DNA from: an uncultured Verrucomicrobiae bacterium
GTDB lineage: Bacteria > Verrucomicrobiota > Verrucomicrobiia > Chthoniobacterales > JAFAMB01
Assembly: GCA_963762565.1 (NCBI GenBank)
Contig: CAVXLD010000010.1
Coordinates: 192,001-256,000 of the forward strand
DNA length: 64,000 bases
Reading direction: 5' to 3'
In this document: in pieces, positions 10,753-62,285 of the stretch
How positions within the stretch are numbered: the first letter of the stretch is position 1
Layout: each line of letters begins with the position of its first letter
Notes under the pieces: model-generated
Seen by the model: the letters and a program-made list of their open reading frames with translations, nothing else
Told to the model about the DNA's origin: nothing
The model's database searches: none
Made by a program: the position numbers and the translations under genes

Positions 10753-11463
10753 GTGGACAACGATGCTCCTGGGCCAACCATCCGTGAATTACCTTCCGAG
10801 CAACGGCCGCGGGAGAAGCTTTTGCAGCGTGGTCCGGCCTTTCTCACTGATGCCGAATTGATCGCCATTCTGCTTCGCACGGGCACGAAAGGGGTGAACG
10901 CGATCGCACTAGCCGATCGAGTCCTTCAGAAATTCGGCTCCTTCGCCGGCGTGGCGCGTGCATCCGTTCAAGAATTAGCGAAGGTTCACGGAGTCGGCTT
11001 GACTAAAGCGATTCAACTGGCCGCATCTTTTGCACTCGGTGTCCGTTTGGCGCAGGAACGTTTCGCTGCATCAACCGTGGATTCACCGGCGGTCATAGAA
11101 GAATTGCTGGGACCGGAACTCCGTCTTTTGGACCGCGAATCGCTCCGCGTGGTCCTTCTCGACGCCAAGCAACGCCTGCTGGCAGTTCACGAGATATCGA
11201 AAGGAAGTCTGAATGAAAGCCTGGCTCATCCGCGAGAGATCTTTAAACCGGCTATCGCCCATTCTGCCTATTCCTTCATTTTGGTGCATAACCATCCATC
11301 CGGTGATCCCAGCCCGAGCGAGGCCGATCTTCGTTTGACCAGACGCCTAATAGAAGCAGCGCGGATCTTGCAGCTCAACTTGCTCGACCACGTAATTATT
11401 GGTCTTCCCCTTCCGGGTCGCTGCGGGTATTTCAGCTTTAAGGAAGCGGGGGTGATTGGGTAG
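10753..11463 (+). CDS. radC: RadC/JAB domain protein
   Basis: RPREKL, ELIAILLRTG, HPREIFK, VHNHPSGDPSPSEAD, LLDHVII. Confidence 0.96.
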   Translation: MDNDAPGPTIRELPSEQRPREKLLQRGPAFLTDAELIAILLRTGTKGVNAIALADRVLQKFGSFAGVARASVQELAKVHGVGLTKAIQLAASFALGVRLAQERFAASTVDSPAVIEELLGPELRLLDRESLRVVLLDAKQRLLAVHEISKGSLNESLAHPREIFKPAIAHSAYSFILVHNHPSGDPSPSEADLRLTRRLIEAARILQLNLLDHVIIGLPLPGRCGYFSFKEAGVIG

Positions 11464-11665
11464 GGCGAGGCTCCGGAATAGCCAGGAGGGCGTCGCAAAG
11501 GGAAAATGGCGTAGCGTCAGTCTATGGCATGCACCGCCTAAACGCTGCCGAGCCGTGGGTTGCGCGCCCCCGGCTCGGCAGTTCTCCAGCGTTGCACCCG
11601 ATATACCAACGAAATACCATTTCGCGTCGCGACCCATTCCGGCTGGTCCGGAGCCTCGCCCTACC
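11459..11665. repeat. Split-REP inverted doublet, family B copy 1
   Basis: GGTAGGGCGAGGCTCC-72 nt-GCCGAGCCG-15 nt-CGGCTCGGC-70 nt-GGAGCCTCGCCCTACC. Confidence 0.92.
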
Positions 11666-12551
11666 GTGGCTTGAACTGCTGCTTCACGTACTCAACAAAA
11701 CGCGCTACAACTTCTTCCGCACCTTTTCTCCAGGCCATGCCATAGCGCATCTTCTCCACCGGCGGAGACAAAGGAACGAAGCGTACTCCGGGAGCAGGCA
11801 GCCGGCTGATATGTTCTGCGAAGATGGAGATACCAAAGCCCGCGGCGACGTATTGGACGCCGGTTCGGGCCCGGTCGACCTCCTGCACTACTCTTGGAAC
11901 GAAGCCGGCCTTTTCACACATTCGCGCGATCTGCGATCGGTAATTGGGCGAATTTTTTTCGGAAGTAAAAATGAACGGCTCGTCTTTGAGCTGAACCAAA
12001 GAAACCTTGGGCAGACGGGCAAAGCGATGATCGCTGGGCATTCCTACGAATGGCGATTCTTCAGAGAAACATTCTACACAAAGCCCGGGCGGCGGTTTCC
12101 CGGCGATCGGTCCGACCAACCCCACATCCAATTTCCGAGCCAGAAGCGCCTCAAGCTGCTGCGACGGGTGTATTTCAGTCAGGGTTACCTCGACCTCCGG
12201 ATACTTGGCCCGAAACCGCTTCAGCACTCGTGGCATCCATTCGTGGCTCTGCGATCCAATGAAACCGATTGCCAGCGTGCCGTATTCTCCTTGGCCAATC
12301 CGCCTGGCTTGGCGAGACGCTTCTTCGACCGAGCGTATGATCCGTTCCGCGGATTCAAGAAACGCTTCGCCTGCCGCCGTTAACCTTACCCGGCGCCGGC
12401 TCCGCTCAAGCAGGACAACTCCGAGCTCGTTTTCAAGGTCTTGAATCTGGGAGCTGACGGCCGATTGCGCCACGTGCAACCGGGTAGCTGCTCGAGTAAA
12501 ACTCAGCTCTCCCGCAACTGCTTTAAAGTAGCGCAAGTGTCGCAATTCCAT
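11661..12551 (-). CDS. LysR family transcriptional regulator
   Basis: MELRHLRYFKAVAGELSFTRAATRLHVAQSAVSSQIQDLE; divergent from the MFS gene. Confidence 0.96.
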   Translation of the reverse strand: MELRHLRYFKAVAGELSFTRAATRLHVAQSAVSSQIQDLENELGVVLLERSRRRVRLTAAGEAFLESAERIIRSVEEASRQARRIGQGEYGTLAIGFIGSQSHEWMPRVLKRFRAKYPEVEVTLTEIHPSQQLEALLARKLDVGLVGPIAGKPPPGLCVECFSEESPFVGMPSDHRFARLPKVSLVQLKDEPFIFTSEKNSPNYRSQIARMCEKAGFVPRVVQEVDRARTGVQYVAAGFGISIFAEHISRLPAPGVRFVPLSPPVEKMRYGMAWRKGAEEVVARFVEYVKQQFKPR

Positions 12552-12644
12552 TCTACCTCTTAACCTATTAATCTGAAAAAGAGATAACTGCTAACGTTAT
12601 AAGCTATTTCATTTATCACCAAGAGCCGTCTACTTTGAGTCATC

Positions 12645-14189
12645 ATGAGTAGCACTTCATCGGTCCAATGGCTTCAAAAGGCGGACCGAGGCTCCACTCG
12701 CAGATTGCCGCGCGGGCCTGTCCTTAACCGGGAAGGTTCAACGGCAAAACGTTCCCCGGGGGTGAATCGTTGGCTGGCACTCGCCGTGATGCTGGTGGGG
12801 CCGTTGCTTGGTGTTATCGACTTTTTTATCGCAAACATCGGCATCAACAGCATCCGGACCTCTCTGCACGCCGGTTTCGGAGAAATTGAGCTGGTGGTTG
12901 CTGGATATGGATTGACCTACGCGGTGTGTCTGATCACCGGAGGCCGCCTGGGCGACATCTACGGACGCAAGAAGATCTTCATTCTTGGATTGATCGGATT
13001 CACCAGTACGTCGGCCCTATGCGGTCTAGCGGCGAACGCAACTTCGTTAGTGATCTGGCGCTTGCTTCAAGGTTGCACAGCGGCCGTCATGTTCCCACAG
13101 GCGCTCTCATTCATTCATGTCAATTTTTCGGCTTCGGCGAAGCGACTCGCCTTCAGCATCTATGGAGCAGCGATCGGCTTCGGCTCCATTCTCGGCCAGA
13201 TTCTCGGAGGATTTCTGATCCAGGCTAATCTCTTCGGTCTAGGATGGCGGCCAATCTTTTTGATAAATGTCCCTATCGGTCTGGCAACGGTAGCGGCAGC
13301 ATGGCTGGTGCTGCGAGAATCACATTCCGAAAAGCCTCCCCGATTGGATCCAATCGGTACGGTACTTTTGTCGGTCGCACTTTTTCTATTTTCATTCCCT
13401 TTCATGGAAGGGCGAGACGCTGGCTGGCCTGCCTGGGCATGGATCGCCCTGGCGGCCAGCGTCCCTCTTTTTGCGGTCTTTTTGCGCTGGGAAAATCACC
13501 TCGCGCGCATTGGCACAACTCCTTTGGTCGAACCCCGACTTCTACGGGACCGGGGTTTCCTCGTCGGCATCGGCGTGACGTGCATCTATTTCGCCGGACA
13601 CACTTCGATGCTGCTGGTCCTGTGCCTCTTTCTGCAGCTCAGCCTGAACCTCAACCCCTTCCAGGCGGGACTTTCGCTGGCGCCATTCTCCTTTGGGTTT
13701 CTGCTGGGCTCAGCCTTCTCGGGCAAACTCAATGGTTATCTCGGTCGGAAGTCCTTGCACGTCGGAGCTGCGGTGTTGGGGGTAATGCTAGCCGCCTTGG
13801 CTTTAGAAGCTTCTAGCATCCACGGCCAACAAAACTTTCTTTTTCTCTTCTCCTGCTTTCTTTACGGGATCGGACGAGGTCTGGTGACTACCCCTCTCTT
13901 CAACACGGTGCTCAGTGGTGTGCCGGCCCAAGATGCAGGTGCGGCGGCGGGAATCGTCTCGACGGCTCAACAGGTTGCAAATTCGGTTGGTATCGCGGTG
14001 CTTGGCGCGATTGCGTTCTCCGTTATCCCGCATCGCGCTACGGCGGCGGATTATGCTCACGGTTTCGTATTATCAAGCGTCGTAAACCTATTCATGGTTG
14101 GCGCCGCATCGGTCTTGCTGTTTCTCATTCCCAAAAAACGTGGTCATGAAGCCACGCCAGCGGGCGAACCTTCGCTAGAAGCGGCTTAA
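12645..14189 (+). CDS. MFS efflux transporter, DHA2 (EmrB/QacA-like)
   Basis: GGRLGDIYGRK motif A, WRPIFLINVPIG, many hydrophobic segments. Confidence 0.93.
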   Translation: MSSTSSVQWLQKADRGSTRRLPRGPVLNREGSTAKRSPGVNRWLALAVMLVGPLLGVIDFFIANIGINSIRTSLHAGFGEIELVVAGYGLTYAVCLITGGRLGDIYGRKKIFILGLIGFTSTSALCGLAANATSLVIWRLLQGCTAAVMFPQALSFIHVNFSASAKRLAFSIYGAAIGFGSILGQILGGFLIQANLFGLGWRPIFLINVPIGLATVAAAWLVLRESHSEKPPRLDPIGTVLLSVALFLFSFPFMEGRDAGWPAWAWIALAASVPLFAVFLRWENHLARIGTTPLVEPRLLRDRGFLVGIGVTCIYFAGHTSMLLVLCLFLQLSLNLNPFQAGLSLAPFSFGFLLGSAFSGKLNGYLGRKSLHVGAAVLGVMLAALALEASSIHGQQNFLFLFSCFLYGIGRGLVTTPLFNTVLSGVPAQDAGAAAGIVSTAQQVANSVGIAVLGAIAFSVIPHRATAADYAHGFVLSSVVNLFMVGAASVLLFLIPKKRGHEATPAGEPSLEAA

Positions 14190-14214
14190 GGCGCCGCACG
14201 CCGCTGGCCTGTCG

Positions 14215-14562
14215 TAATCGTCCTCGTCGTCGTTCTCGTCCTCGATTCGACGGGTTCCCAAAAAAACGTGGTAGAACCCAACGTCTGGAGGGGAGCCGCT
14301 TTGTCAGTCGCTAGTTCTGTAGGTCGGCAGGAAGCGGCTACCGAGAATGACCGAGCGTGACGCAAATTCTATCGGTCGGCGCTCAAATCGATTGGCTCTG
14401 GAACAACGGCGTTGGGCAGCAGCGCAGCGTTGGGCTATTCGCGGGAGCCGCCTGCTGCCGACTGATAGAGCTGCCAACCGACAAAGCGGCTCCCCTCCAG
14501 GCGCTGGGTTCTGCCACGCTTTCTAGGAGAAACCCGCTCGAGTACGAGTACGAGGACGATTA
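14215..14562. repeat. Nested inverted-repeat element, family A copy 2, with CTCGTY shell
   Basis: TAATCGTCCTCG.. / ..CGAGGACGATTA shell; CGTGGTAGAACCCA / TGGGTTCTGCCACG layer; GGAGGGGAGCCGC at 14287 and GCGGCTCCCCTCC at 14486. Confidence 0.9.
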
Positions 14563-14578
14563 GGAAGAGCGTTTAGCT

Positions 14579-15085
14579 CTATATTTCAGTTTCGAGATCC
14601 CGGACCATGCGCCGGACATAAGTAATCCGGGAACGCGGCTTGAGAATCTTCAGACTCTGCTGATACGAACCCACCTCCAAGAGTTCAATAGTGACTCGGC
14701 GAGCGCCCCAGCTAACCATTTCCCGACGAGACGGCATATAGAGATCGATAGTGTTTGTGCCCACTAACGCCGAACCGTAGTCATCGACCACATAAAGCCG
14801 ATTCGAACCCACGACGCGAAACTTTGTTCCAACTGGAAACCGCGACCAATCCGCTGCTGCACTATTCAATTCAGCGGCAGCCAAGCGGCCATCAACAGCG
14901 TTACTCTTCCCGTATCGCCTATGTGCCCTTTCTGTATGGCAATACGCAGTCGTTTTTACCTGGACCAGTTTGTGAAGAGACGCTTTGCCTTGGAGTGCCG
15001 TACCATTTTTGAGCTGGCTTACGTCCTGGGAGCAACCAACCACAAAAATTGACACTCCCAACGACACGGCGTGGAAGGTTCTCAT
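14579..15085 (-). CDS. 3D-domain (MltA-like) putative lipoprotein
   Basis: Lipobox-like FVVGC; TTAY, AAADWSRFPVGT, VDDYGSAL, TIDLY. Confidence 0.85.
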   Translation of the reverse strand: MRTFHAVSLGVSIFVVGCSQDVSQLKNGTALQGKASLHKLVQVKTTAYCHTERAHRRYGKSNAVDGRLAAAELNSAAADWSRFPVGTKFRVVGSNRLYVVDDYGSALVGTNTIDLYMPSRREMVSWGARRVTIELLEVGSYQQSLKILKPRSRITYVRRMVRDLETEI

Positions 15086-15141
15086 CTAGACAACGCTCTG
15101 CCAAGTGTCCTGATAAGTTCCATAATGTCAATGCAAAAGGC

Positions 15142-15370
15142 GGTAGGGCGAAAAACTCGGCGCGCCGATCGTATCGCTAACCGCTAGAACTTCTCCGCGC
15201 CGGTTTTGAGCCGGCCGTACGTGATACAGCCCCCAAAACATTCGCAGACTTCGGCGTCGCAAATATCGAACACACAGGTTCATGGTTGTCGCACGGAACG
15301 GCTCAAAACCAGCGCGGATGGCCTGTGCGAGCAAAGACTGTGCTCGGCGCGCTGAGTTTTTCGCCCTACC
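15142..15370. repeat. Split-REP inverted doublet, family B2
   Basis: GGTAGGGCGAAAAACTCGGCGCG-31 nt-CGCGCCGGTTTTGAGCCG ... CGGCTCAAAACCAGCGCG-31 nt-CGCGCTGAGTTTTTCGCCCTACC. Confidence 0.88.
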
Positions 15371-15382
15371 AAATCGTCCTCG

Positions 15383-16195
15383 CTACTCGCCTTCGGACGT
15401 ACTCTCCCCCTTCACACCGCTCCAGCGAACAAAGGCGCAAATTCCTCGTTTTGACTCTTTCACAAACTCCCAAAACGGCTGGATTTCCGGGCTCCACTTT
15501 TCCTCAGCGGCCCTGGCAACAGCTTGTGAAGGATTCAGTCCTTCGTGATACAGAATGTGAAAAGCCCGCTTTACTTCCAACCGCAGACTTGGCCCAAAGC
15601 CCGCCCGGCGAAGAGCCACCACATTGATACCAACGATACTGTTTCTTCCGGCTGCGGTACCAAACGGAGGCACATCTTTGCCGACCGCCGAACCACCCTG
15701 CATGATTGACATGCTGCCCAGGCGGGTGTGTTGATGCACCAACGAGCCGCCTCCCAGGAAAGCTTTGTCGTGGATCTGAACGTATCCGCCAAGAAGCACA
15801 TTATTCGCCAAAATCACCTGGTTGCCTAGGTGCGAATTGTGACCAAGATGCGCGCCCACCATTAAGAGACACTGATTCCCGATGATGGTTACAGTGTTGG
15901 GTTTAGTCCCGCGATGAATGGTGCAGTATTCTCGGAGAACATTATCGTTGCCGATCTCAACCCCGCTGGGGCTGTCCGGCTGATAGGACAGATCTTGTGG
16001 GTATCCGCCGACCACACTTCCATAGCCAATCGTGTTGCCAGATCCGATCTTTACTTGGCCCACAATGATGGCGCCTGCTTGAACTTTGGTTTTAGCCCCG
16101 ATAAACACCGGCCCTTCAATCACAACATTTGGTCCAATTTCCACATCGGGCTCAAGATGGGCGCGTGGGTCGATGACAGCGGAGGAATGAATCAT
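15383..16195 (-). CDS. lpxA: Acyl-ACP--UDP-N-acetylglucosamine O-acyltransferase
   Basis: Hexapeptide repeats, PQDL, REYCTIHRGT, HLGHN, HQ, KDVPPF, GINVVALRR. Confidence 0.9.
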   Translation of the reverse strand: MIHSSAVIDPRAHLEPDVEIGPNVVIEGPVFIGAKTKVQAGAIIVGQVKIGSGNTIGYGSVVGGYPQDLSYQPDSPSGVEIGNDNVLREYCTIHRGTKPNTVTIIGNQCLLMVGAHLGHNSHLGNQVILANNVLLGGYVQIHDKAFLGGGSLVHQHTRLGSMSIMQGGSAVGKDVPPFGTAAGRNSIVGINVVALRRAGFGPSLRLEVKRAFHILYHEGLNPSQAVARAAEEKWSPEIQPFWEFVKESKRGICAFVRWSGVKGESTSEGE

Positions 16196-16209
16196 GGTAC
16201 GAGGACTAA

Positions 16210-16321
16210 AAATGACAGATGACAGATGACAGATTGCGATGGCTCATTCCATCAAGGGAATCGATCAAGCTCTTTATTTGTCATTTGTCATTTGTCATCT
16301 GTCATTTGTCATCTGTCATTT
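16210..16321. repeat. Inverted arrays of a heptamer (ATGACAR / YTGTCAT)
   Basis: AATGACAGATGACAGATGACAG followed by six YTGTCAT units. Confidence 0.9.
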
Positions 16322-16399
16322 CTAATGCTCGCACCTTCGAAAGCACATTCCGCGAACGTCTTGCGAGACAGTGGAAGTAATTCACGCTAGGATCGGGCC

Positions 16400-17371
16400 G
16401 TGAGAATTCTTGTTACAGGAGGCGCCGGGTATATCGGCAGCGTTTGCGTTGAGGATCTACTAAATCGGGGACACAACGTGACCGTGTTCGATAACCTCAC
16501 GGAGGGGCACAGAAAGGCGGTCGACGGCCGCGCGAAATTTGTGGAAGGCGATCTGGCAGATCAACCCGCTGTATCAGACCTGATTCGCATGGAAGGGCCC
16601 GAAGCGGTGATGCACTTTGCCGCAAACGCGCTGGTAGGCGAATCGATGCAGAACCCTTACAAATACTTTTATAATAATGTCTCCTGCGGGCTGAACCTAT
16701 TGCACGCAATGGTGGAAAACGGTGTAAAACGGTTCGTCTTCTCATCCACCTGCGCAACTTACGGGATACCGGAGACCGTGCCGATCGATGAGCTAGCTCC
16801 CCAAAAGCCAGTCAATCCGTACGGTGAGTCAAAATTGATTTTCGAGAAGATCCTCCGCTGGTTCGACCAAATTCATGGCGTCACTTTTGCCTCGCTGCGT
16901 TACTTTAACGCTGCCGGCGCCACGGAGGCCTTCGGTGAAGATCACCGGGTCGAGACCCACCTTATTCCCTGCGTGCTACAAGTGCCTCTAGGGAAACGGA
17001 AACATGCCGAGGTATTCGGAACGGATTATCCCACCCCCGACGGTAGTTGTATCCGGGATTACATTCATGTGACTGACCTGGCCCAAGCCCACGCGCTGGC
17101 TCTGGAGGTGAAAGAAAGCGATTTTTTCAACCTCGGCATTGGTGGCGGTGTCTCTGTCTTGGAGGTGATCGATGCCTGTAAAAAAGTGACGGAAAAGGAC
17201 ATACCGACCTTGATGCAACCACGGCGGCCTGGAGATCCTCCCCGGCTGATTGCTTCCGCTGGCAAGGCACGGGAGGTTTTAGGTTGGCGCCCGCAGTTCG
17301 ATCGAATCGAAGACATCGTCAGCAGCGCCTGGAGCTGGCATCTTCGCCATCCCAACGGATACGGTGACTGA
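16400..17371 (+). CDS. galE: UDP-glucose 4-epimerase
   Basis: GGAGYIGS, FSSTCATYG, NPYGESK, LRYFNAAGA, RDYIHV. Confidence 0.97.
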   Translation: MRILVTGGAGYIGSVCVEDLLNRGHNVTVFDNLTEGHRKAVDGRAKFVEGDLADQPAVSDLIRMEGPEAVMHFAANALVGESMQNPYKYFYNNVSCGLNLLHAMVENGVKRFVFSSTCATYGIPETVPIDELAPQKPVNPYGESKLIFEKILRWFDQIHGVTFASLRYFNAAGATEAFGEDHRVETHLIPCVLQVPLGKRKHAEVFGTDYPTPDGSCIRDYIHVTDLAQAHALALEVKESDFFNLGIGGGVSVLEVIDACKKVTEKDIPTLMQPRRPGDPPRLIASAGKAREVLGWRPQFDRIEDIVSSAWSWHLRHPNGYGD

Positions 17372-17547
17372 TTATTGGTCACCATTCGGGGTCACGAGAC
17401 GTCTGTAAACAAAATGCGCAGGATCGATCCCCCTTCCACTCTTCGGAACCTTCGAACTGCTGCAGATCGCCGAAACCCGGATTCTCCTTGCAAATTAACG
17501 ACTCAAGCGATTCGGTGTACGACGGTCTCACGCTCCCAAAACGGAAG

Positions 17548-22885: not shown

Positions 22886-22959
22886 TTTATGAGACAGGAC
22901 ACTAACGCTGGCCGCGCCGAGTTTTTCGCCCTACCGACCGCCCGGAGCCTCGCCCTACC
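22886..22959. repeat. Stack of three orphan element ends
   Basis: TTTATGAGACAGGACACTAA, then CGCGCCGAGTTTTTCGCCCTACC, then GGAGCCTCGCCCTACC. Confidence 0.8.
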
Positions 22960-25525: not shown

Positions 25526-25736
25526 GGTGGGGCGAGGCTCCCGCGAAAGACTGCGGCTTCGCGACGCCCTCGGTTTTGCCTTAGGAACGGGCCGATTAGG
25601 ACTAAAAGCGCGCCGAGCCGTGGTCTATCGCTGGGTCACGGCTCGGCGCGCGCCACAGTCGAGCGGAGCTTTTCGGAGAGTCAGGATCATCCCCTTCCGC
25701 GAAATTTTAAAGGTCCGGCGGGAGCCTCGCCCCACC
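25526..25736. repeat. Split-REP inverted doublet, family B copy 2
   Basis: GGTGGGGCGAGGCTCC-70-GCCGAGCCG-18-CGGCTCGGC-73-GGAGCCTCGCCCCACC. Confidence 0.92.
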
Positions 25737-27468: not shown

Positions 27469-27858
27469 ATGGAGGCACCAAGACTTCAATTATCGCTCCT
27501 GCCCGACGTGCTTGCCGTGTGCAGGTTAGAACCTTCTGACCCAATTCCGGAGTGGGCAACCCGTACCGGCTTCTTCTCCGTCTCGCGAAGCATGGATCAA
27601 CTTTCGATCGTTTGCGCGAATTCGGAGGTCGGCGATGATGTTCGGGCCAGTAAAGGTTGGCGCGCGATCAAGATTGAGGGACCTCTGGACCTCGATTTGG
27701 TAGGTATTCTTGTCTCAGTTGCTGTCCCGCTGGCTCATGCCGGCATCGGTATCCTACCAATTGGTACATTTGACACCGACTACATATTGGTACGTGACCG
27801 GCAGCTGACTCAAGCGATCAAGGCACTTCGCGCTACCGGCTTCCACATTGTGGATTGA
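27469..27858 (+). CDS. ACT-domain protein (CASTOR/ACT_7-like)
   Basis: LSIVC, WRAIKIEGPLDLDLVGIL, TFDTDYILV. Confidence 0.88.
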   Translation: MEAPRLQLSLLPDVLAVCRLEPSDPIPEWATRTGFFSVSRSMDQLSIVCANSEVGDDVRASKGWRAIKIEGPLDLDLVGILVSVAVPLAHAGIGILPIGTFDTDYILVRDRQLTQAIKALRATGFHIVD

Positions 27859-28064
27859 GTTCGGCGTTCGGCGTTCACCGTTTGGCGTTCGGCGTTCGCG
27901 GCAGCACGGTGGCCTATTAGTCCCATGTGTCTCATTGAGCCCGTGGCGCCGTAGGCTTTGCGAAGGCGCATCCCATCCGTTCGACCGCCCAACGATCACC
28001 ATTTCTCCCAGCCCGTGCTAACGGTGAACGCCAAACGCCAGAACGCCGAACGCCGAACGCGAAC
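27859..28064. repeat. Inverted arrays of the GGCGTTC heptamer
   Basis: GTTCGGCGTTCGGCGTTCACCGTTTGGCGTTC... / ...AACGCCGAACGCCGAAC. Confidence 0.88.
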
Positions 28065-31151: not shown

Positions 31152-31441
31152 AATAGCCGCAAAAGAACGCAGAGAACGCAAAGAAAACAAACTTGGTGGG
31201 GCGAGGCTCCGGAACGTTCGAGAAACTTTCGCAGCGCGAAATACTTTGCATTGGTATATGGGATGCAACCCCTGAAAACTGCCGAGCCGCGGGTTGCGTG
31301 ACCCACGGCTCGGCAGCTATTAGACGATGCACCCTAGATACCGGCGAAACGTCATCTCTCCCTGCGAGCTCTTTCCGGTCTTTCCTGAGCCTCGCCCCAC
31401 CAAAAGCTTTTCTGCGTTCCTTGCGCTCTTTTGTGGCTATT
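31152..31441. repeat. Family B copy 3 (31195-31401) inside a GAACGCAAA-type inverted shell
   Basis: Core spacing 70/16/71 nt; shell ATAGCCGCAAAAGAACGCAGAGAACGCAAAG / TCTGCGTTCCTTGCGCTCTTTTGTGGCTAT. Confidence 0.92.
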
Positions 31442-32254: not shown

Positions 32255-32350
32255 CGCAGGAGACTCTACGCAAAGGGTTCAGCCCGCAAGGGGAAAACTA
32301 GGAAATGCCGGTAACGCGTTGAGTCAGGGAACGCCCTCGGCCCATGCGAG

Positions 32351-32576
32351 AAGGAGCTAGGAGCTAGGAGCTAGAATTTAGGAGGGGCACACGCTGGGCG
32401 CATGGCCAATCGATCTCATGCAAATCGGTGGGCTCTGCGACTGGATGCGACTTATCGGGCCCATGGGTCTTCAGTGTCAGGTCTCATAGATCACGCATGT
32501 CTTGATCCCGAGCGCCACTATATGCCGCAAGCCCCAGATGCCCAGCGCGGGTACGCCTCCTAGCTCCTAGCTCCTT
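32351..32576. repeat. Inverted GGAGCTA arrays enclosing a further inverted repeat
   Basis: AAGGAGCTAGGAGCTAGGAGCTAG / CTCCTAGCTCCTAGCTCCTT; inner CGCTGGGC / GCCCAGCG. Confidence 0.85.
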
Positions 32577-34498: not shown

Positions 34499-34697
34499 GT
34501 GTCCTGTCCCATAAATAGCGTATCGGCGTGTGGGCGTATCGGGGTATCGGCGCGTGGGCCGAGTGGACACACAGTACGCGGCCACCGCAAAAGCGGAGCG
34601 TAAGGACGTCCACTACGTCGACTCAGTCCACTCCGTCCACTTACGCCGACACGCCGACACGCCCACACGCCAATACGTTATTTATGGGACAGGACAC
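34499..34697. mobile_element. MITE-like element with 17-bp terminal inverted repeats
   Basis: GTGTCCTGTCCCATAAA (34499-34515) and TTTATGGGACAGGACAC (34681-34697) enclose inverted GGCGTRTS arrays and GAGTGGAC/GTCCACTC; mobility is inferred. Confidence 0.6.
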
Positions 34698-36443: not shown

Positions 36444-36720
36444 GGAGGGGAGCCGCTTTTGCGTGTTATGACGGGAAACAAGTGTTGCCTGGAATTTTAA
36501 CACGATCCTGACCCAGCTTGTGGTCCAGCAGGCGGCTCCCGCGAATAACCAGCGCGCTTTTCGCTAAAAGCTTTCGATAGCAACGACGAAACGGTTCGGG
36601 CCAAGGAGACATATGTCAGGGGTCGTTCGCGGGAGCCGCCTGCTGCCTCACGAGTCGGCATCATACACGATGAAAGGAATATGCGGGGCGTATTGCAACA
36701 GGCCGAAGCGGCTCCCCTCC
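36444..36720. repeat. Family A copy 3
   Basis: GGAGGGGAGCCGC-75-GCGGCTCCC ... GGGAGCCGC-68-GCGGCTCCCCTCC; followed by unpaired TTTCACC and TCCTAGC arrays (36751-36872). Confidence 0.9.
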
Positions 36721-40840: not shown

Positions 40841-40956
40841 GCGAATGGGCGAAACGGCGAATGGGCGAAGGGGCGATCGGAGGCGTGGACTGTTGATTGG
40901 CCCTATCGATCATGGGCGCTCCCATTCGCCGTATCGCCGTATCGCCGTATCGCCCC
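40841..40956. repeat. Inverted octamer arrays (GGCGAAWS / GTATCGCC)
   Basis: GCGAATGGGCGAAACGGCGAATGGGCGAA / CCCATTCGCCGTATCGCCGTATCGCCGTATCGCC. Confidence 0.85.
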
Positions 40957-44292: not shown

Positions 44293-44374
44293 AGCCTGGG
44301 TTACTCGCAACCGGCCGAGCCGCAAGGACTCGCATAGGCGGATGCGGCTCGGCCGGTTGCGAGTAATCCAGGCT
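44293..44374. repeat. Near-perfect hairpin with a stem of about 32 bp between dnaG and rpoD
   Basis: AGCCTGGGTTACTCGCAACCGGCCGAGCCGCA / TGCGGCTCGGCCGGTTGCGAGTAATCCAGGCT, one G-T pair. Confidence 0.9.
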
Positions 44375-47291: not shown

Positions 47292-47643
47292 GCGAATCGG
47301 CGAGAGGGCGAAACGGCGAAAGGGCCGATCGAAGCCCGGTGTTGGGTGGGGCGAGGCTCCGGAACCACCGACTGTATTCCCAAAGCCTGTTGTGGATTCC
47401 AACGATATCGTAAGCAAGGTCGATTCGCCGCCGAGCCGCAACCCAGCGCTATGCAGTCGAACCAAGCCTTCGATTTATCGGTGGTTTTTTTGGAGTGGTG
47501 AATCGAGGGTCACGGCTCGGCAGCGCACAGGCCTAACCCGCAACAGCCGAGGCGAATACCATTCGCTTTGGCCCGGCGTTTGAGTCCATTCCGAAGCCTC
47601 GCCCCACCGACGCTGGGCTTCGGTCGCCCATTCGCCGTTTCGC
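47292..47643. repeat. Family B copy 4 (47345-47608) inside a GGCGAAAC-type shell
   Basis: Core spacing 69/74/71 nt; layer CGAAGCCC / GGGCTTCG; shell GCGAAACGGCGAA / TTCGCCGTTTCGC. Confidence 0.9.
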
Positions 47644-54049: not shown

Positions 54050-54676
54050 ATGAGCTTGTCAGTTTACTTTGCCGGTGAGCTTTTCAACGCCAAACATTTA
54101 GCCGGTAACGCCGGACTCGCCGCTGCCATCCAGCGCCATTCCGACGGGCGATTTGTTTGTGTCCTGCCACAGACTCTGGAAAACCGGGAAGAGGGCGCCC
54201 ATTTCATCCGGGACGAAGACCTCGAACACCTAGTCTCCTCAGATATCGCGCTCTTCAATTTCGACGGTTCTGAAATCGATTCGGGCACCGTCGTAGAATT
54301 CCTGGTGGCAAAGTTCGCTGATATCCCGGCCCTCCTGCTACGTACTGATTTTCGGCGCGGCGGCGACCAAGGCCAAGAGCCCTGGAACCTCATGCTTAGC
54401 TTTTACCCGAGAACCACAACCTGCTGTCTTGACAGCATGGCTCTGTATAAGACCGCTTTGTCCGAAGGCCTAGATCCGGTTGGCGCGGCCGATCGGATGC
54501 TGGACCAGATCGCAACCCAAGTGATCCCAGAGCTAGATGCGCTCGCTCAGTCCAAACCAATTCTCCCAACGGAGCTTACCGACCCCGTCCACGATTGGTT
54601 GGTCCAATTCCCCGGTTTTCGTTCCCCAGAATCGATAACTCGAATTCGCCAAGCGCTACATCGCAAACGTCCTTGA
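54050..54676 (+). CDS. Nucleoside 2-deoxyribosyltransferase family protein
   Basis: VYFAGELF, LPQ, D, DGSEIDSGTVVE, RTDFR, WNLM. Confidence 0.85.
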   Translation: MSLSVYFAGELFNAKHLAGNAGLAAAIQRHSDGRFVCVLPQTLENREEGAHFIRDEDLEHLVSSDIALFNFDGSEIDSGTVVEFLVAKFADIPALLLRTDFRRGGDQGQEPWNLMLSFYPRTTTCCLDSMALYKTALSEGLDPVGAADRMLDQIATQVIPELDALAQSKPILPTELTDPVHDWLVQFPGFRSPESITRIRQALHRKRP

Positions 54677-54737
54677 AATTCCCGCCGCCGTCCACCAATC
54701 ACCTCTCACCAATCACCTCCCCTTCCTCCCCCTCCCC

Positions 54738-55832: not shown

Positions 55833-55846
55833 TAGTCGTCTGTTCG

Positions 55847-56245
55847 TTAAGTCTTCCTACCCTGTTCGGACATCAGTGCGAGAAGATGATGGTCCGGGTC
55901 ACGAAAAAACGCCATGTACAGATCGTGGTCAGGAAGTGACGCAACCAGATGCGCGTCCTGCTCAAAAGTCACGCCGCGCTTGGCGAGCACCTCAGCTGAC
56001 CGATGAATATCGGTGACTCGGAAATACAGTGTCGACGTCATTTTCTCCTCGGATCCACTCTGCGCGGCCGATCCCAGCATGATACGAACGGCGCCACATC
56101 GAAAGAAAGCCAAGCCCGGAGGCGCCGTAAAGAGAAGCGGCAATCCAAGCGCATCGCGATAGAACTTTATAGACCGATCAAGGTCGGCAACCGTCAGGGC
56201 AACCTGAGCAATTTCAATTAACTGCAAGTCGTCATTATTCGCCAT
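55847..56245 (-). CDS. VOC/glyoxalase family protein
   Basis: VADLDRSIKFYRDALGL, FFRDPD. Confidence 0.92.
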   Translation of the reverse strand: MANNDDLQLIEIAQVALTVADLDRSIKFYRDALGLPLLFTAPPGLAFFRCGAVRIMLGSAAQSGSEEKMTSTLYFRVTDIHRSAEVLAKRGVTFEQDAHLVASLPDHDLYMAFFRDPDHHLLALMSEQGRKT

Positions 56246-56255
56246 GAACCCGAGC

Positions 56256-57233
56256 TTATCGACCTATAGAAATCCCCGCTTCTTCAAAATTGCGAATTTG
56301 ACTGGGCTCTCGCCCATATTGCCGTAACGCGGAGGGAGAAAGCCCCGTAGCCTTTCTGAACAGAGAGCTGAAAGAACCAAGACTCTCAAACCCGACGCTG
56401 AAACAGATGTCAGTCACGCTTTGATTCGTTCTTTCGAGCAAAAACCTGGCTCGATCTAGCCGGCAACGAGTTAAGTACGCGTGCGGCGTCTCTCCGTAGC
56501 AGAGCTTGAAGACCCGGATGAAATGGTAGGGAGACAGGCAAGCTTCAGCCGCAATATCGTCTATACGGAGCCGTTGAGAGAGGCGGGCATGGATGATATC
56601 GCGCGCCCGGCTGATTCGGAGTCGAAGCTCGTGCCGAGTCGACGGCCGCAAGCTCGATAAAGCCAACGCTGCCGGATCGCGGTTGTCCTCGCTTCGCAGA
56701 AGTGTTTCCAACAAAAACCGCAATTTCTCCGCCAGTAGATTATCGGGTAGAGCGCCTTGCTTGTGCGCCCGTCTTAGGGCGAAGACCTCAGGCGAAACCA
56801 GTTCGTCATGCCTCGTCGTCCGGTCAAAGAAATGACACGCCTGACTCGATGACCTGCCTCCGCCCGGACTATCGAGGAGGCTGATCGCGCTGTTACGCAG
56901 GGTGTGCTGGACATCTTCTGCCCACCCGTTAGGGAACCAAATCACGAACGACTCCACCTGGGTGTTGGAATCGATGGCAATCGAGTAGGCTTGCCCCTCG
57001 TTCAAAACCAGATAGTTCGTCTCATCAACCGTGATTGCTCTCCTGCCCACGGTATATTGCGCGCATCCGTTGAACATCGTCTTCAGCGATAGAGGCGGAG
57101 CCTCTGACGAACCGAAATGCTGATATCCGCGAGCGGCCGTCAGGGTGTTCTTTTGCAGCTCTCCCTGCTGCCAGATCACTCGGAGCGGCTCTGCCAGGGG
57201 TGGCATCCGTTTCGCGTAGGAATAAGAATGCAT
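56256..57233 (-). CDS. AraC family transcriptional regulator
   Basis: C-terminal ACLSPYHFIRVFK...ICFSVGFESLGSFSSLFRK; start uncertain. Confidence 0.93.
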   Translation of the reverse strand: MHSYSYAKRMPPLAEPLRVIWQQGELQKNTLTAARGYQHFGSSEAPPLSLKTMFNGCAQYTVGRRAITVDETNYLVLNEGQAYSIAIDSNTQVESFVIWFPNGWAEDVQHTLRNSAISLLDSPGGGRSSSQACHFFDRTTRHDELVSPEVFALRRAHKQGALPDNLLAEKLRFLLETLLRSEDNRDPAALALSSLRPSTRHELRLRISRARDIIHARLSQRLRIDDIAAEACLSPYHFIRVFKLCYGETPHAYLTRCRLDRARFLLERTNQSVTDICFSVGFESLGSFSSLFRKATGLSPSALRQYGREPSQIRNFEEAGISIGR

Positions 57234-57393
57234 GTTCTTAGCTGACTGCTGATTAAACGGCCTTGAATTATTTGCAATCGCAACTGAACCGTCAATCCGA
57301 GATCCCGCGACAAGACTCTCATTTAGAACGATTTCTTTGCTGCTGAACAACGACAGAAGCGGCAAACTAGTCTTACATGTAGCGCCCACTGCT

Positions 57394-59190
57394 ATGAAAC
57401 CTGAATTTGTCGCTCTAGGTCTAATCTTAGCGGGCGCTCTTTATCTCTTTTGGACCCAGAAATTGCGCACCGACATCACCGCACTGTTGGTGATGTTGAG
57501 CTTGGCAATTCCCTGGCCTCACGCCGACGGCAAATGGTTGGGAGTTCTAACGCCCCAAGAGGCATTCGCCGGCTTTGGTAGCGTTGCCGTTATCATGGTC
57601 ACCGCCATGTTTGTTTTCAGTGCTGCCCTGGTCCGCACTGGTGTCGCTGAAATGATCGGGGGACGTTTGTTCAGAGCGGCAGCTAGCAACGAGCTCCTTC
57701 TTCAGATCGCGGTTTTCACGGTGGCCACCGCTTGTTCCATGTTCATAAATGAGACCACGATTGTTCTCGTGTTCATGCCGGTCGTTTTGGGCGTGTGCAA
57801 AGAGCGCAACCTTTCCCCGTCCCGCTATCTCATGTGCGCCGCCTACGGGGCCGCTCTCGGCGGTCAATGGACCCTGATCGGCACCCGCAGCAATGTGATT
57901 ATCAGTGAGTTCTTTCGCCAACGTACCGGGCACCCCATCGGGTTTTTTGATTTCACACCCGTTGCTGCCACCGTTTTCGTTGGTTGTTCCCTTTACTTTT
58001 TTCTGGTCGCGCGCCGATTCCTGCCGGCGGCCGATGTCCAGTCGTTGGAGCAGGAACTCGGCAAGGAATACCTGAGCGAGGTAATGATTACGCCGCATTC
58101 AGCCACCGTCGGCTTAACCCTGGATCAGCTCGAATGGGCCAAACGCCAGGATGCCACTATCGTCGGGGTCATCCGAGACGGTGAAAGGATGCCGCCCAAC
58201 GGGTGGATGAAATTGCATGCCGGTGATGCCCTGATCGTTCAAGGCGCCGTGCCAACGATCGGCAGCTTGCTGAAATCTCCCGACTTTCATTTCTTGGAAG
58301 AAGTCAAGATCGGCGAGAAAGCCTTGCGCAGCTTAGACCTGATTACAGTCGAAGCCTTATTATCTCCCAACTCCCGATATACCGGGCGCACGATGCAGGA
58401 TACTAACTTCGGCCGAGATTACGGTTTCAGCGTGCTCGGTATTTCGCGGCATGGACAAACAATTCAGGAACGGCCCTCCGCTACTCAACTTGAGTATGGT
58501 GACTCTCTCCTCTTGCTTGGCCACAACTCGAACCTCGAGCGCCTTGAGCGCAATCCGAACTTGATTGTGCTAAACCAACGCCACTTCCCGACCACCGGAA
58601 AAACGCAAGCCGTCATTACGATGCTTCTGTTGCTCGGCATTATTTTGTCAGCTGTTACTGGCGCGCTCACCCCGGCGCTTTCGATTCCGATCGCGGCAGC
58701 CGCGGTTTTACTATTCAAGGTCGTGAAGGTCACAGATACGTATAAGTCTGTCGATTGGCCGGCGGTCGCTACCGTTGGCGGCATGATCTCCTTTGGGTTC
58801 GCTCTCGAAAAGACTGGGGCAGCTGCCGCCTTGGCCCACGCCATCGTCAGCAATTTCCAATGGGCGGGACCAACCTTGATTCTCGGGGCAATGCTGTTAT
58901 TTACCGTGACCCTAACCCAAATCATCGAAAACGCGGCCGTAGCCATCATTTTAGCGCCGATTGCCTACCAAATTGCGCGCGAAAGCAATACCGATCCAAA
59001 GCCGTTCATGATCGGGTTAGCCGTTTGCATTTCCACTTCCTTCTGCACGCCCGTGGCCCATGAAACCACGATGCTGGTTATGGGTCCGGGCCGCTATCGT
59101 TTTAAGCATTATCTGACGATGGGGGTCGGGATGGCGATTGTCGCCTGGTTAATCGCAACTTACGCGACGCCGTTGATCTGGAGATTCTGA
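57394..59190 (+). CDS. SLC13/CitM-like permease with two TrkA-C (RCK_C) domains
   Basis: LGGQWTLIGTRSN, central soluble region, SFCTPVAH, VMGPGRY. Confidence 0.92.
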   Translation: MKPEFVALGLILAGALYLFWTQKLRTDITALLVMLSLAIPWPHADGKWLGVLTPQEAFAGFGSVAVIMVTAMFVFSAALVRTGVAEMIGGRLFRAAASNELLLQIAVFTVATACSMFINETTIVLVFMPVVLGVCKERNLSPSRYLMCAAYGAALGGQWTLIGTRSNVIISEFFRQRTGHPIGFFDFTPVAATVFVGCSLYFFLVARRFLPAADVQSLEQELGKEYLSEVMITPHSATVGLTLDQLEWAKRQDATIVGVIRDGERMPPNGWMKLHAGDALIVQGAVPTIGSLLKSPDFHFLEEVKIGEKALRSLDLITVEALLSPNSRYTGRTMQDTNFGRDYGFSVLGISRHGQTIQERPSATQLEYGDSLLLLGHNSNLERLERNPNLIVLNQRHFPTTGKTQAVITMLLLLGIILSAVTGALTPALSIPIAAAAVLLFKVVKVTDTYKSVDWPAVATVGGMISFGFALEKTGAAAALAHAIVSNFQWAGPTLILGAMLLFTVTLTQIIENAAVAIILAPIAYQIARESNTDPKPFMIGLAVCISTSFCTPVAHETTMLVMGPGRYRFKHYLTMGVGMAIVAWLIATYATPLIWRF

Positions 59191-59218
59191 GACAGCGTCC
59201 TTGCGATAGCGACAAAAG

Positions 59219-59575
59219 ATGAAAGCCCCCGCACCAAATAATGTCATCGAGATTCTCACGATCGATTTAAAGCCTGGCCGAAGGGATGAGTTTCATCGGC
59301 TCTACGTGAGCGAGGCTTTACCACTCCTGAAGAAATGGAATTTTGAAGTGTTGGCCCACGGTCCATCGCCGCACGACCAGAATAGTTATTATGTATTCAG
59401 GCAGTTCGAGAGCCTGGAAGAAAGGCAGCGATCCGAGGATGCGTTCTATAGCAGCGACGATTGGCAAAAAGGCCCTAGGAACCGCATGCTCGCCTTGGCA
59501 GATCATTTCGCTTATGCGGTTGTCTCTGCCACAACACTGATCGGGATCACGAGCGCCGCCGCTCAGAACCTTTGA
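59219..59575 (+). CDS. NIPSNAP family protein
   Basis: LKPG, FESLEER, FYSSDDW. Confidence 0.85.
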   Translation: MKAPAPNNVIEILTIDLKPGRRDEFHRLYVSEALPLLKKWNFEVLAHGPSPHDQNSYYVFRQFESLEERQRSEDAFYSSDDWQKGPRNRMLALADHFAYAVVSATTLIGITSAAAQNL

Positions 59576-59672
59576 CATAGCTCCAGTGTGAGCTTGTAAA
59601 TCGTCCAAGGCCCCACCCTTTCACCTTTCACCGGCCTTTTGCTCCTTTGACTGTTTGCTTCTAACTTTGTAA

Positions 59673-60722
59673 ATGCCGCGAAAGATCGTCCATCTCGATA
59701 TGGATTGTTTCTATGCGGCGATCGAGGTTCGTGATCACCCTGAGTTAGCCGGTAAGCCCGTTGCGGTCGGAGGCGCTCGAGATCGTCGAGGAGTATTGAC
59801 CACGTGCAACTACGAAGCGCGCGAGTTCGGGGTTCGTTCCGCCATGCCGACCTTCCAGGCGTTGCAGAAATGTCCGCACCTCATCGTCATGCCGACCCGG
59901 TTTGAGGTTTACCGGCGCGAATCAGCCAGGATTCGAGAGATCCTCCTGAAGTTCGCTCCCGTCATCGAGCCTCTCTCCTTGGACGAAGCTTTCCTCGACT
60001 TATCCGATCATCCCGGCGAAACCTCGGCGACCGTCGCCGTTATCCGACAATTGATCTGGCAAAAGACCCACCTGACCGCATCTGCAGGCGTTGCTCCCAA
60101 CAAAATGCTGGCGAAAATCGCCAGCGACTGGAAGAAGCCGAACGGCCAATTTGAGATCCGATCGGAGGATGTGTCCGAATTCATGGTCGAACTGCCCGTA
60201 AGACGTCTTTGGGGAATCGGACCAAAATCAGCAGAACGATTAGCTGAACTAGGCGTCAACACCTGCGGCGATCTGCAGCGCTATTCGCGGGTCGAATTGA
60301 TCGAGCAATTCGGTAAGTTCGGCCTCGAGCTCTTCTCGCTGTGCCGCGGGATCGATGATAGGCCGGTTACTCCGGATCGGATACGAAAGTCACTGAGCAG
60401 TGAACGCACCTTTCCTCACGACCTCACTTCCCTGGCCCAATGTGAGGCCAAAATTCCGGAGCTCTTTGAGGAGGTGATGGAGGACCTGAAAAAATCGGAG
60501 TCAACCGACCAAGTAAAATCCGCCTTTATCAAAATCCGATTCTCAGACTTCACCAGAACAACCGTCGAACGCGCCGGCTTGCCGTTAACCGTGGAGAATT
60601 TTCAAGCGCTACTCCGCCAGGGGCTAAGCCGTAAATCCCTGAACGTGAGATTGCTAGGTCTCGGAGTCCGGTTCCAAGAACCAGACTCCGAGGGCGCAAC
60701 CCAGCTGGAATTGCAGATCTGA
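59673..60722 (+). CDS. dinB: DNA polymerase IV
   Basis: HLDMDCFYAAIE, CNYEAREFGVRSAM, SLDEAFLD, KIASDWKKPNG. Confidence 0.98.
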   Translation: MPRKIVHLDMDCFYAAIEVRDHPELAGKPVAVGGARDRRGVLTTCNYEAREFGVRSAMPTFQALQKCPHLIVMPTRFEVYRRESARIREILLKFAPVIEPLSLDEAFLDLSDHPGETSATVAVIRQLIWQKTHLTASAGVAPNKMLAKIASDWKKPNGQFEIRSEDVSEFMVELPVRRLWGIGPKSAERLAELGVNTCGDLQRYSRVELIEQFGKFGLELFSLCRGIDDRPVTPDRIRKSLSSERTFPHDLTSLAQCEAKIPELFEEVMEDLKKSESTDQVKSAFIKIRFSDFTRTTVERAGLPLTVENFQALLRQGLSRKSLNVRLLGLGVRFQEPDSEGATQLELQI

Positions 60723-60850
60723 CCGAACTCGCCTTAGGCTCGCTCGGAATAGCCGATAGCCAATAGCCAAATGGCGCGCTCGAAAGCTCCGCTCATTGGC
60801 TATCGGCTATTGGCTATTGGTCATTCGTCGACGAGCCTAAGGCGAGTCGG
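60723..60850. repeat. Inverted repeat with ATAGCCR heptamer arrays
   Basis: ACTCGCCTTAGGCTCG..ATAGCCGATAGCCAATAGCCAA / TTGGCTATCGGCTATTGGCTAT..CGAGCCTAAGGCGAGT. Confidence 0.9.
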
Positions 60851-60890
60851 CGACTTGGCATTGCCTCCCAATCCATGACATTATCGGCCT

Positions 60891-62054
60891 ATGATTTCGC
60901 CGTATCCGTTCAAACCTCGAGGGCGGTTATTGGACGTCATGCGTCAGGTGGGCGATCCCGGCCTGATCAATCTGGCGGCCGGTTTGCCGTCCGTGCATTG
61001 TGTCCCTAAAGCCGACCTGACAGCAGCCTTTCTCGCCACTTTAGAAGAGAATGCGGACGAAGCACTCGGTTATCATGTACCGGATGGCGATCTACGGCTT
61101 CGCCAGCTTTTGGTTGATCGATTTCACCGGCGCGGAATCAATACGAGTGTCGATCAGATGGTCATCACCACGGGTTGCTCACAAGCTCTCCATGGGATGA
61201 TCCGGCTGCTCGCGAAGCCCGGTGATATCGTTGCCTGCGAAGCGCCGGCCTATTACTCCACGCTAGAGATTATGGGCGATCTAGGTCTGAAGGCTTTACC
61301 GGTTCCGGTTAAAGACATTGATGGAATCGATTTCGAGCTCGCTCAGGTCCTCTTCCGACGATATCAGCCAAAACTTTTCGCGATTTGCTCTTCTTTATCG
61401 AATCCTTCCGGCGCCACTATTCCAAGCGAGATTAGAAAAGCGTTGATCGAACTTTGCCGAGAGACCGGGACCCGAATCCTCGAGGACGACATCTATGGCG
61501 AGTTGTCGGAGATCTCGGACCTCAAACCGATCCGGGCTTTTGATGACGGATCCACTGTGAGTTACGTGACGAGCTTTTCGAAGACAGTAGCACCGGGGCT
61601 GCGCATTGGAGTTTGTTTACCAGGGTTAGATGCTAATCCCTTTGCTTTATTGAAGTGTCAGCAAGACATGCATTCAGCAACCCTCTGCGAGGTGGCGTTC
61701 CGCCGATACTTTGAGACCGGCCGGCTAGACGGCCACCTCGAGTACTTGCGACGGTTTAACCAGGAGCGGCGAGAACTGGCGCTAAGTGTCATTGAAGAAT
61801 GTTTTCCGGCTTCGGCCACGGTTTGGAAACCGGCCGGCGGATTCTTGTTATGGGTAGAGCTGCCCCCTGGCATTAAAGCGGAGCAAGTCTATCGAAGCGC
61901 GCTCAAGGAAAAGGTCGCCTTCTGTCCCGGTAGCGCCTTCTACACTTCAGACGAAAACGAAATCGGCGCAATGCGGCTCAACTGCTCGCGTCCCAGCGAG
62001 CAGGAGTTAGTGAAGGGTCTCAGGATCTTGGGACGGATTGTGAAACAAGCGTGA
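60891..62054 (+). CDS. Class I PLP-dependent aminotransferase (MocR-type AAT domain, no HTH)
   Basis: INLAAGLP, SNPSG, EDDIY, SFSKTVAPGLRIG, MRLN. Confidence 0.9.
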   Translation: MISPYPFKPRGRLLDVMRQVGDPGLINLAAGLPSVHCVPKADLTAAFLATLEENADEALGYHVPDGDLRLRQLLVDRFHRRGINTSVDQMVITTGCSQALHGMIRLLAKPGDIVACEAPAYYSTLEIMGDLGLKALPVPVKDIDGIDFELAQVLFRRYQPKLFAICSSLSNPSGATIPSEIRKALIELCRETGTRILEDDIYGELSEISDLKPIRAFDDGSTVSYVTSFSKTVAPGLRIGVCLPGLDANPFALLKCQQDMHSATLCEVAFRRYFETGRLDGHLEYLRRFNQERRELALSVIEECFPASATVWKPAGGFLLWVELPPGIKAEQVYRSALKEKVAFCPGSAFYTSDENEIGAMRLNCSRPSEQELVKGLRILGRIVKQA

Positions 62055-62075
62055 GCCCGGTAGGGCGTTTTTTTT

Positions 62076-62285
62076 GGTGGGGCGAGGCTCCCGAAGGAAC
62101 CTCGATTGGAACGAAGCTTGTAACGTTGCCCCACCGAACCCCATTGTTATGCCTTTGAACGCGCCGAGCCGTGGCCCACGATAGACCACGGCTCGGCGCG
62201 TTTATCGGCCTTGTTCATAATTTTGTTTGGGGTTCGCTTTACACCCTTGGTCGGTCGCCCAGTCTTTCGGGAGCCTCGCCCCACC
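62076..62285. repeat. Split-REP inverted doublet, family B copy 5
   Basis: GGTGGGGCGAGGCTCC-71-GCCGAGCCG-17-CGGCTCGGC-72-GGAGCCTCGCCCCACC. Confidence 0.92.

Follow-up and report, generated by a model that had tools for sequence, protein, structure and literature searches.

We analysed a window of 64,000 nucleotides (nt) from an uncultured Verrucomicrobiae bacterium (contig CAVXLD010000010.1, positions 192,001 to 256,000), which carries five inverted repeat doublets. Each doublet has two arms, heads outward, around a centre, and each arm is a repetitive extragenic palindromic (REP) sequence whose 16-nt head and 9-nt inner motif are held apart by a long insert, the full layout being GTRG, GGC-GA-GGC and TCC, then 67-74 nt of insert, then GCC-GA-GCC. 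Evidence from the whole genome makes it highly probable that this family of REP doublets forming hairpins (REPINs) is passenger DNA of one REP-associated tyrosine transposase (RAYT, or TnpA-REP) encoded elsewhere in the genome, and that its copies are under some selection for span.

The doublets sit where the preliminary description of this DNA had placed them, starting at 11459, 25526, 31195, 47345 and 62076, and motif counts lie far above chance: the head and the inner motif have 13 matches each in the window, ten of them in doublets in either case, for chance expectations of 1.09 and 1.48. The ten insert lengths (72/70, 70/73, 70/71, 69/71 and 71/72 nt) are also exactly those reported, and the heads at 31386 and 47593 carry one mismatch each. 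A short motif, CRRVG, lies at insert position 21-23 in nine of the ten inserts.

11459..11665, no strand assigned: doublet 1, a head-out REPIN with a centre of 15 nt, flanked by convergent radC-like and LysR genes and made up of a head (11459-11474), its inner motif (11547-11555), the inverted inner motif (11571-11579) and the inverted head (11650-11665)
11475..11546, plus strand: insert X1, 72 nt, CRRVG at 22
11580..11649, minus strand: insert Y1, 70 nt, CRRVG at 21
22944..22959, minus strand: lone extra head, in whose insert a head from a different REP family is nested after 9 nt
25526..25736, no strand assigned: doublet 2, with an 18-nt centre, flanked by convergent genes for a TraB-family protein and a pyruvate kinase
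25542..25611, plus strand: insert X2, 70 nt
25648..25720, minus strand: insert Y2, 73 nt, without CRRVG at 20-24
31195..31401, no strand assigned: doublet 3, with a 16-nt centre, flanked by convergent genes for a class II tRNA-synthetase (GAD domain, aspS-like) and an FKBP
31211..31280, plus strand: insert X3, 70 nt
31315..31385, minus strand: insert Y3, 71 nt
47345..47608, no strand assigned: doublet 4, centre 74 nt, between an open reading frame (ORF) of 160 aa and a convergent glycosyltransferase gene
47361..47429, plus strand: insert X4, 69 nt
47522..47592, minus strand: insert Y4, 71 nt
62076..62285, no strand assigned: doublet 5, centre 17 nt, 3' of an aminotransferase gene
62092..62162, plus strand: insert X5, 71 nt
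62198..62269, minus strand: insert Y5, 72 nt

The narrow length distribution holds throughout the 6.1-Mb source genome, here called G000, as a scan proposed with the preliminary description shows. Searching for the head as a 12-mer with at most one mismatch gave 567 heads; the inner motif follows 55-89 nt downstream of 455 of them, and at 67-74 nt in 445 of these 455 (standard deviation, SD, 1.45), while only 34 of 5000 random positions have an inner motif in that range. Arms measure 92-99 nt in total, and 361 of the 445 pair into 181 head-out doublets, whose centres are at most 25 nt in 89 cases and from 26 to more than 140 nt in the remainder. In 194 cases where the partner head was not selected for, 147 partners match perfectly and another 20 with one mismatch. 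Among 481 exact heads 225 have GGTG and 213 have GGTA, the GGC of the foot follows directly, and TT flanks both heads on the outer side. In four heads (G000:C1:66505, C1:301663, C11:82802 and C12:257820) a near-identical long sequence is inserted a few bases into the insert.

Among 43 genomes searched, all six of the genus contain the exact split pattern in 34-383 copies each, three others of the family in 1-3 copies, and the remaining 34 in none. The same arms, with 76-88% identity in their flanks, recur at loci whose titles read Chthoniobacterales or Verrucomicrobiota. Typical split arms also occur on contigs titled Alphaproteobacteria and Actinomycetota (L090, L122), which share 78-96% identity with G000 DNA and are probably mis-binned.

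No RAYT gene lies in the window, as had been noted, but a cognate RAYT bracketed by these very motifs is present elsewhere in the genome. This protein of 152 aa, P0001 (G000:C10:17378-17833), was found by blastp and the NCBIfam model NF047646, whose cut-off it passes with 84.5 against 80 bits, and its gene has a split arm with a 69-nt insert on either side, heads outward. It aligns to E. coli TnpA-REP (4ER8, E 6e-7, the only solved relative) through H65/H67, W101-Q102 and Y122, both proteins having the HUH, WQ and Y motifs. Of the 17 RAYT/IS200-like ORFs of G000, it is the only one with a complete arm on either side. The Pfam model Y1_Tnp (PF01797) misses this cognate RAYT; it returns 12 genes in G000 and another 23 among five congeners, and arms bracket none of them.

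The pairing of gene and arm is retained among relatives. At 12 RAYT loci with 77-100% identity, a set that includes the G000 locus itself and one duplicate, at least one complete split arm (67-72 nt) was found at 11, a head and the start of an insert at the twelfth, and a compact arm at none. The spacers between gene and arm are nearly fixed, at 77-86 nt upstream and, in 8 of 9 cases, 29-31 nt downstream. In a tree of 34 rows, from which the duplicate and rows shorter than 130 aa were left out, the nine split-type proteins all fall on one side of a branch with 99/99 support. A RAYT relative with 62% identity is flanked on both sides by compact REPs, which have the identical head and inner motif and differ in their 4-nt loop and frequent tandem arrays, and at distant RAYT loci (38-45% identity) short hairpins stand near the gene in 14 of 15. 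Because close orthologues carry split arms and distant RAYTs compact REPs, the compact REP is probably ancestral and the split form derived. At two pairs of RAYT loci, L204/L209 and L206/L207, one arm is far closer and the other far more distant than the synonymous distance of the RAYT gene, which suggests replacement of whole arms.

The compact REP-like unit that remains when the insert is removed had been proposed on paper; it exists as a real sequence, and the derivation of this REPIN class from a compact GTAG/GTGG REP is supported. In the compact form the head and inner motif are joined by a single pyrimidine. It occurs once in G000, in 5 of 301 genomes of the phylum (G000 counted) and in 4 of 5 genomes of the family picked for the test, and also at loci titled Planctomycetota and others. 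Compact and split forms stand side by side in G006, from a sister genus, and in G007, and at one site in G006 (L176:672) the same ends enclose 88 nt, seemingly including a nested hairpin of about 20 nt.

The pairing within the arm is probably not the GGCTC/GAGCC stem suggested earlier. Across the RAYT relatives GGCGA and GAGCC are constant and both strands of the inner stem vary together (GGC/GCC, GAAT/ATTC, AAGCC/GGCTT, AAACC/GGTTT), and the minimum-energy fold of the compact form is GGC-GA-GGC, a 4-nt loop and GCC-GA-GCC (-4.8 and -5.1 against -4.6 kcal/mol). Since covariation and fold favour this register, the insert probably enlarges an apical loop from 4 nt to about 74 nt. According to PMC8266576, E. 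coli TnpA-REP requires the tag and the bulge, and the upper stem-loop serves it in a structural, non-specific way, so an expanded loop would be tolerable in principle.

By analogy with that enzyme, which needs tag and bulge and not the loop sequence, we infer the following course of events. A compact REP would have had its 4-nt loop lengthened by some 70 nt ahead of the radiation of the genus. The RAYT would bind the GTRG tag and the GA-interrupted hairpin foot on single-stranded DNA, and would copy doublets by cutting and rejoining. Replication would be limited to copies with intact ends and roughly the right span, and such selection would explain why the ends are fixed, the insert sequence is randomised and large indels are purged. 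A sequence-independent geometry that brings two weak half-stems together is the most likely basis of the span, although we put it forward tentatively.

The sequence of the inserts bears on what they are. Their pairwise identity averages 38% (maximum 94%) and their identity to the consensus 50%, but held-out inserts score 22.8 bits on the family profile against 9.5 when shuffled, and column shuffles give nearest neighbours that are far less alike than the real ones. Judged by these profiles, nearly all inserts descend from a single ancestor, and the closeness of nearest neighbours indicates that subfamilies arose by slow copying. The relationship noted earlier between the doublets at 11459 and 31195 is real in that their four inserts are the most alike in the window (60-65%), but it is not exclusive, the other inserts being weakly related too. 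An ordinary old miniature inverted-repeat transposable element (MITE), with a single ancestor and neutral decay, had been named as the outcome that would overturn the preliminary description; the insert sequences do show this, the insert length and CRRVG not fully.

CRRVG is found at position 20-24 in 390 of 445 inserts, and the five-position window there contains it in 87% of arms, compared with 3-12% elsewhere. AG is present in 356 of the 390 copies, compared with 319 by column shuffle, and CT (AG on the opposite strand) is given as the usual RAYT cut site in the text of PMC3333891; that CRRVG may be a RAYT cut site is speculative, the AG excess being a weak hint. A mini-hairpin around CRRVG was considered and showed no pairing excess. 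Structural selection inside the insert, another earlier suggestion, is not borne out, with a folding z of 0.08 ± 0.11 (120 of the 445 inserts) and no stem covariation: the top covarying pairs do not align as a stem and look like subfamily linkage. A coding frame was likewise rejected, as the lengths are not multiples of three. The site for IHF that would point to a bacterial interspersed mosaic element of type BIME-1 is not enriched (22 of 370 inserts against 19.7 shuffled, for an IHF consensus).

The preliminary description saw in the inserts a fast-diverging cargo, and in its strongest form this reading has the loop capture or hypermutate variable sequence of measured length, in the manner of spacers or of a diversity-generating retroelement (DGR). 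The low mean identity is what such a loop would give, and a second insert type unrelated to the main one points the same way, although it may derive from another REP family. However, the inserts are homologous to one another, as their fit to the family profile shows, and match nothing else that was tested. Only 10 of 445 match anything outside arms, and the 25 of 206 matches listed are decayed arms or a nested REP; there is no match to Rfam, none to phage or plasmids with doublet 5 as the query, and no profile match of the insert to other repeat families. Nor do they change faster than four-fold sites: at orthologous RAYT-flanking arms insert p-distances average 0.46 and 0.36, while four-fold sites give 0.54 (10 loci, each average taken over 36 non-independent pairs), which argues against hypermutation. 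In 43 mutual-nearest pairs the difference is 18% in the insert and 2.6% in the ends, the latter a lower bound since the ends were selected for, and the substitution spectrum of the insert is ordinary and transition-rich. With neither the foreign inserts nor the targeted hypermutation of a CRISPR-like or DGR-like cassette in evidence, we regard a cargo as extremely improbable.

Doublets are largely extragenic, crude gene calls containing only 3 of 181; of the 136 that were placed, 40 are in convergent-gene gaps, which make up 445 of 2124 background gaps, and heads often stand 10-50 nt past stop codons. These features would suit a host-selected RNA element, either a terminator or a structured non-coding RNA. 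However, site turnover is high, the family is tied to a DNA transposase, and neither covarying structure nor an Rfam match was found, so that such an origin is most improbable, although the doublets may have a secondary effect on RNA. Turnover is seen at the 24 of 33 examined loci of relatives that have two-sided synteny to G000: the family is present in G000 at 5 and absent at 19, several of the latter slots holding a different repeat. On this syntenic comparison copies are gained and lost between species.

The length of the insert is probably under some selection: large indels are rare and shifts are partly compensated. Among close pairs 30 of 31 indels are single-base. Over 166 doublet pairs, which are non-independent and biased by selection for length and likeness, 337 of 367 indels in inserts are single-base compared with 9 of 22 in long centres, and indels of at least 3 nt number 2 of 367 and 5 of 22. 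Regressing total on upstream length, where a slope of 1 means no compensation, gives 0.50 (95% 0.14-0.86) or 0.40 (-0.07-0.83) by cluster bootstrap; the segment-length covariance was dropped, since anchor errors create it. Helical-turn length classes (60, 81) proved on inspection to be mostly false early matches or tandem heads. We take these data to indicate a soft constraint, chiefly against large indels.

The same REPIN-RAYT system could also have merely inherited its length, from one ancestral insertion followed by a low indel rate, with no selection on span. The measured 0.056 indels per substitution predict an SD of 1.6-2.0, near the observed value, the squared length difference rises with divergence (from 1.1 to 5.6), and the RAYT-to-arm spacers keep their length as well. 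Since such a plain walk nearly gives the observed SD, any extra constraint is modest. However, the rarity of longer indels relative to long centres, the broad length variation of those centres, the partial compensation and the 64-69 nt of the unrelated second insert type within the same ends all speak for selection, and we consider simple inheritance possible though unlikely. Alternatively, the doublet may fold as one long hairpin whose two inserts must match, with exchange of arms pinning a common length. Doublet 5 is indeed predicted to fold from end to end as a single hairpin, long and imperfect (z -11); at variable columns the likeness between partners is slightly raised (0.363 against 0.302 ± 0.012), and in 4 of 5 bins their lengths differ slightly less than those of random pairs matched for identity; the discordant arm distances in two RAYT locus pairs suggest arm replacement; and length and hairpin capacity are named as critical spacer features in the text of PMC3116915. 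But partner inserts are just 45% alike, the difference in length amounts to no more than about 1-2 standard errors in each bin, arms around a 460-bp RAYT gene hold the same length, and common ancestry accounts for partner likeness equally well, which leaves a symmetry requirement rather unlikely.

Other repeats of this genome also hold fixed intervals. Of 351 copies of the GGAGCCGC family in G000, 130 have a loop of 34-36 nt and 196 one of 67-73 nt, the GGCGAAAA family has loops of 29-33 nt in 68 of 68, and one compact REPIN family has spacers of 67-75 nt in 76 of 80. Within the ends of the split family itself, the second insert type, AAAACGT...GCAGCATG, measures 64-69 nt and occurs, at 65-69 nt, in ten arms of G000 (G000:C5:364596, C13:50702, C12:326301 and others), with sites also at L015, L073, L079 and L134. 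It scores like shuffled sequence on the main insert profile and has a weak likeness to the GGAGCCGC long loop (13.5 against 10.0 bits); a loop swap between REP families is possible. The GGAGCCGC loops comprise a young 34-nt class, an old 70-nt class and a 57-nt class resembling the 34-nt loop plus a 22-nt hairpin. This GGAG-tagged family flanks a third RAYT (L012, G000:C1:579805-580266) and has sites in the window at 585-766, 14258-14527 and 36517-36654. Another RAYT (L162, G000:C7:542253-542699), 48% identical to P0001, is bracketed by GGCGAAAA REPs with 29-33-nt loops, and at three related RAYT loci the REPs show a stepwise extension of the stem.

The recurrence of 64-75-nt intervals in repeats of unrelated sequence suggests a shared single-strand ruler, for which the host's single-strand binding protein (SSB) offers one candidate. 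An unstructured loop of 65-75 nt would wrap once round the SSB tetramer so that the half-stems meet and the RAYT binds, and loops of 30-35 nt would fit a smaller mode. Modes of 35 and 65 nt are described, with DNA entry and exit close together in the latter (PMC4582245, 10.1101/2020.12.05.412478), and the text of PMC5027513 suggests a co-complex of SSB with the related IS608 transposase. Four intervals (main insert, second insert type, GGAGCCGC long loop and compact-REPIN spacer) cluster at 64-75 nt and two loops at 29-36 nt; the main insert profile scores the other three of the longer group within about 2 bits of shuffled sequence; the inserts are unstructured, and the genome has one ordinary SSB gene. 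Against this, the agreement is one of numbers only and may be a coincidence, the footprint of SSB is described as variable (about 30-70 nt), SSB melts weak hairpins, the second insert type may not be independent of the GGAGCCGC long loop that it weakly resembles, and the conserved insert motifs are left unexplained. We therefore find SSB as the ruler quite doubtful. There is likewise a small chance that several RAYT-REP pairs of this lineage independently grew loops of about 30-35 or 65-75 nt, sized to SSB or another single-strand wrap, a hairpin-melting protein then being the scaffold of a bipartite transposase site.

Returning to passenger DNA of one RAYT with span-selected copies, several points weigh against it. 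Foot pairing in the isolated arm is predicted at about 5%, and the predicted fold of the doublet favours one long hairpin. The comparison of indels depends on non-independent pairs picked for likeness and length, and a single-base walk at the measured rate comes close to the observed SD. The tree gives no supported sister placement of the 62% relative with compact REPs, and in some orthologous RAYTs there are stops or a stretch resembling a frameshift. Identical inserts do not occur, so replication would be slow or stopped. No clean empty site was found among the syntenic loci or among the contigs of four sequencing runs, which mostly broke at repeats. Finally, cleavage and transposition by the RAYT are deduced from sequence.

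Some further observations concern the surroundings of the doublets. Convergent genes flank four of the five in the window, the fifth following the aminotransferase gene. In doublet 1 the TAG of each head (11461-11463, 11661-11663) is the stop codon of the adjoining gene; across the genome this is not enriched (7 of 213 against a background of 2.2%). A near-perfect inverted repeat of 32 bp at 44293-44374 contains the inner motif but no heads. Tandem units of 7-8 nt form inverted arrays at 27853-27897, 32350-32575, 34499-34697 and 40841-40882 and at L016, L048 and L074 with their G000 orthologues; they bracket intergenic slots whose middle holds different REPIN families in different species.

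Among known systems the family most resembles REPIN-RAYT systems, having a GT[AG]G tag at the 5' foot, many extragenic copies, inverted doublets, an arm-flanked RAYT and copy turnover. As described in the text of PMC3116915, REPINs of P. fluorescens SBW25 are likewise extragenic inverted REP doublets with conserved ends, a variable spacer and a RAYT flanked by its own REPs; spacer length is described as critical, with a peak for GI doublets at 71 bp from one start to the next, and length-conserved, sequence-variable spacers between REPs are already on record. There, however, the variable stretch lies between two intact REPs, whereas here it lies inside the hairpin loop of each REP, with a separate centre in addition. 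E. coli TnpA-REP (RAYT group 2, subclass 2.2) also uses a hairpin-bulge-hairpin with GT[AG]G as the tag at its foot and leaves the loop sequence unread, according to the texts of PMC8266576, PMC3333891 and PMC6006769; the present arms differ from the bulged E. coli REPs in a tandem GA/GA mismatch in place of AA/GC, a 3-bp upper stem and a loop of about 74 nt, and any likeness to subclass 2.2 is tentative. The GTAG REP families of PMC3733652 share GTRG-tagged stem-loops, dimers, loop variants within a family and RAYTs bracketed by repeats, and include members in Verrucomicrobia and Planctomycetes, but the largest loops in its text are 9-15 nt, or self-complementary up to 27 bp, and none is unstructured with a fixed 70 nt. 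Literature searches on REP and RAYT returned no description of 70-nt REP loops; the figures and supplements of PMC3733652 and PMC6006769 could list compact or long-loop forms. With regard to a MITE of a DDE transposase, for which a target-site duplication would be expected, the family has inverted ends and TT outside both heads, no clean empty site was found, and the associated enzyme is a Y1 HUH protein. The short palindrome (20-40 nt) with a small loop that characterises REPs is found in the compact relative only, and the long arm and loop therefore make this family an unusual REPIN-RAYT variant and not a typical member.

The family bears on how RAYTs copy REPINs and on why REPIN spacers keep their length. 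It amounts to a natural experiment, in which the ends are identical but the loop measures 74 nt in one RAYT clade and 4 nt in close relatives, and its hundreds of variants separate the bases that matter (the tag, the GA-interrupted foot, CRRVG) from the others. A single enzyme of 152 aa would allow loop length to be titrated in vitro. If no host protein sets the length, the family would be a striking yet ordinary drift variant; if one does, single-strand mobile DNA would be tied to the replication fork in a new way.

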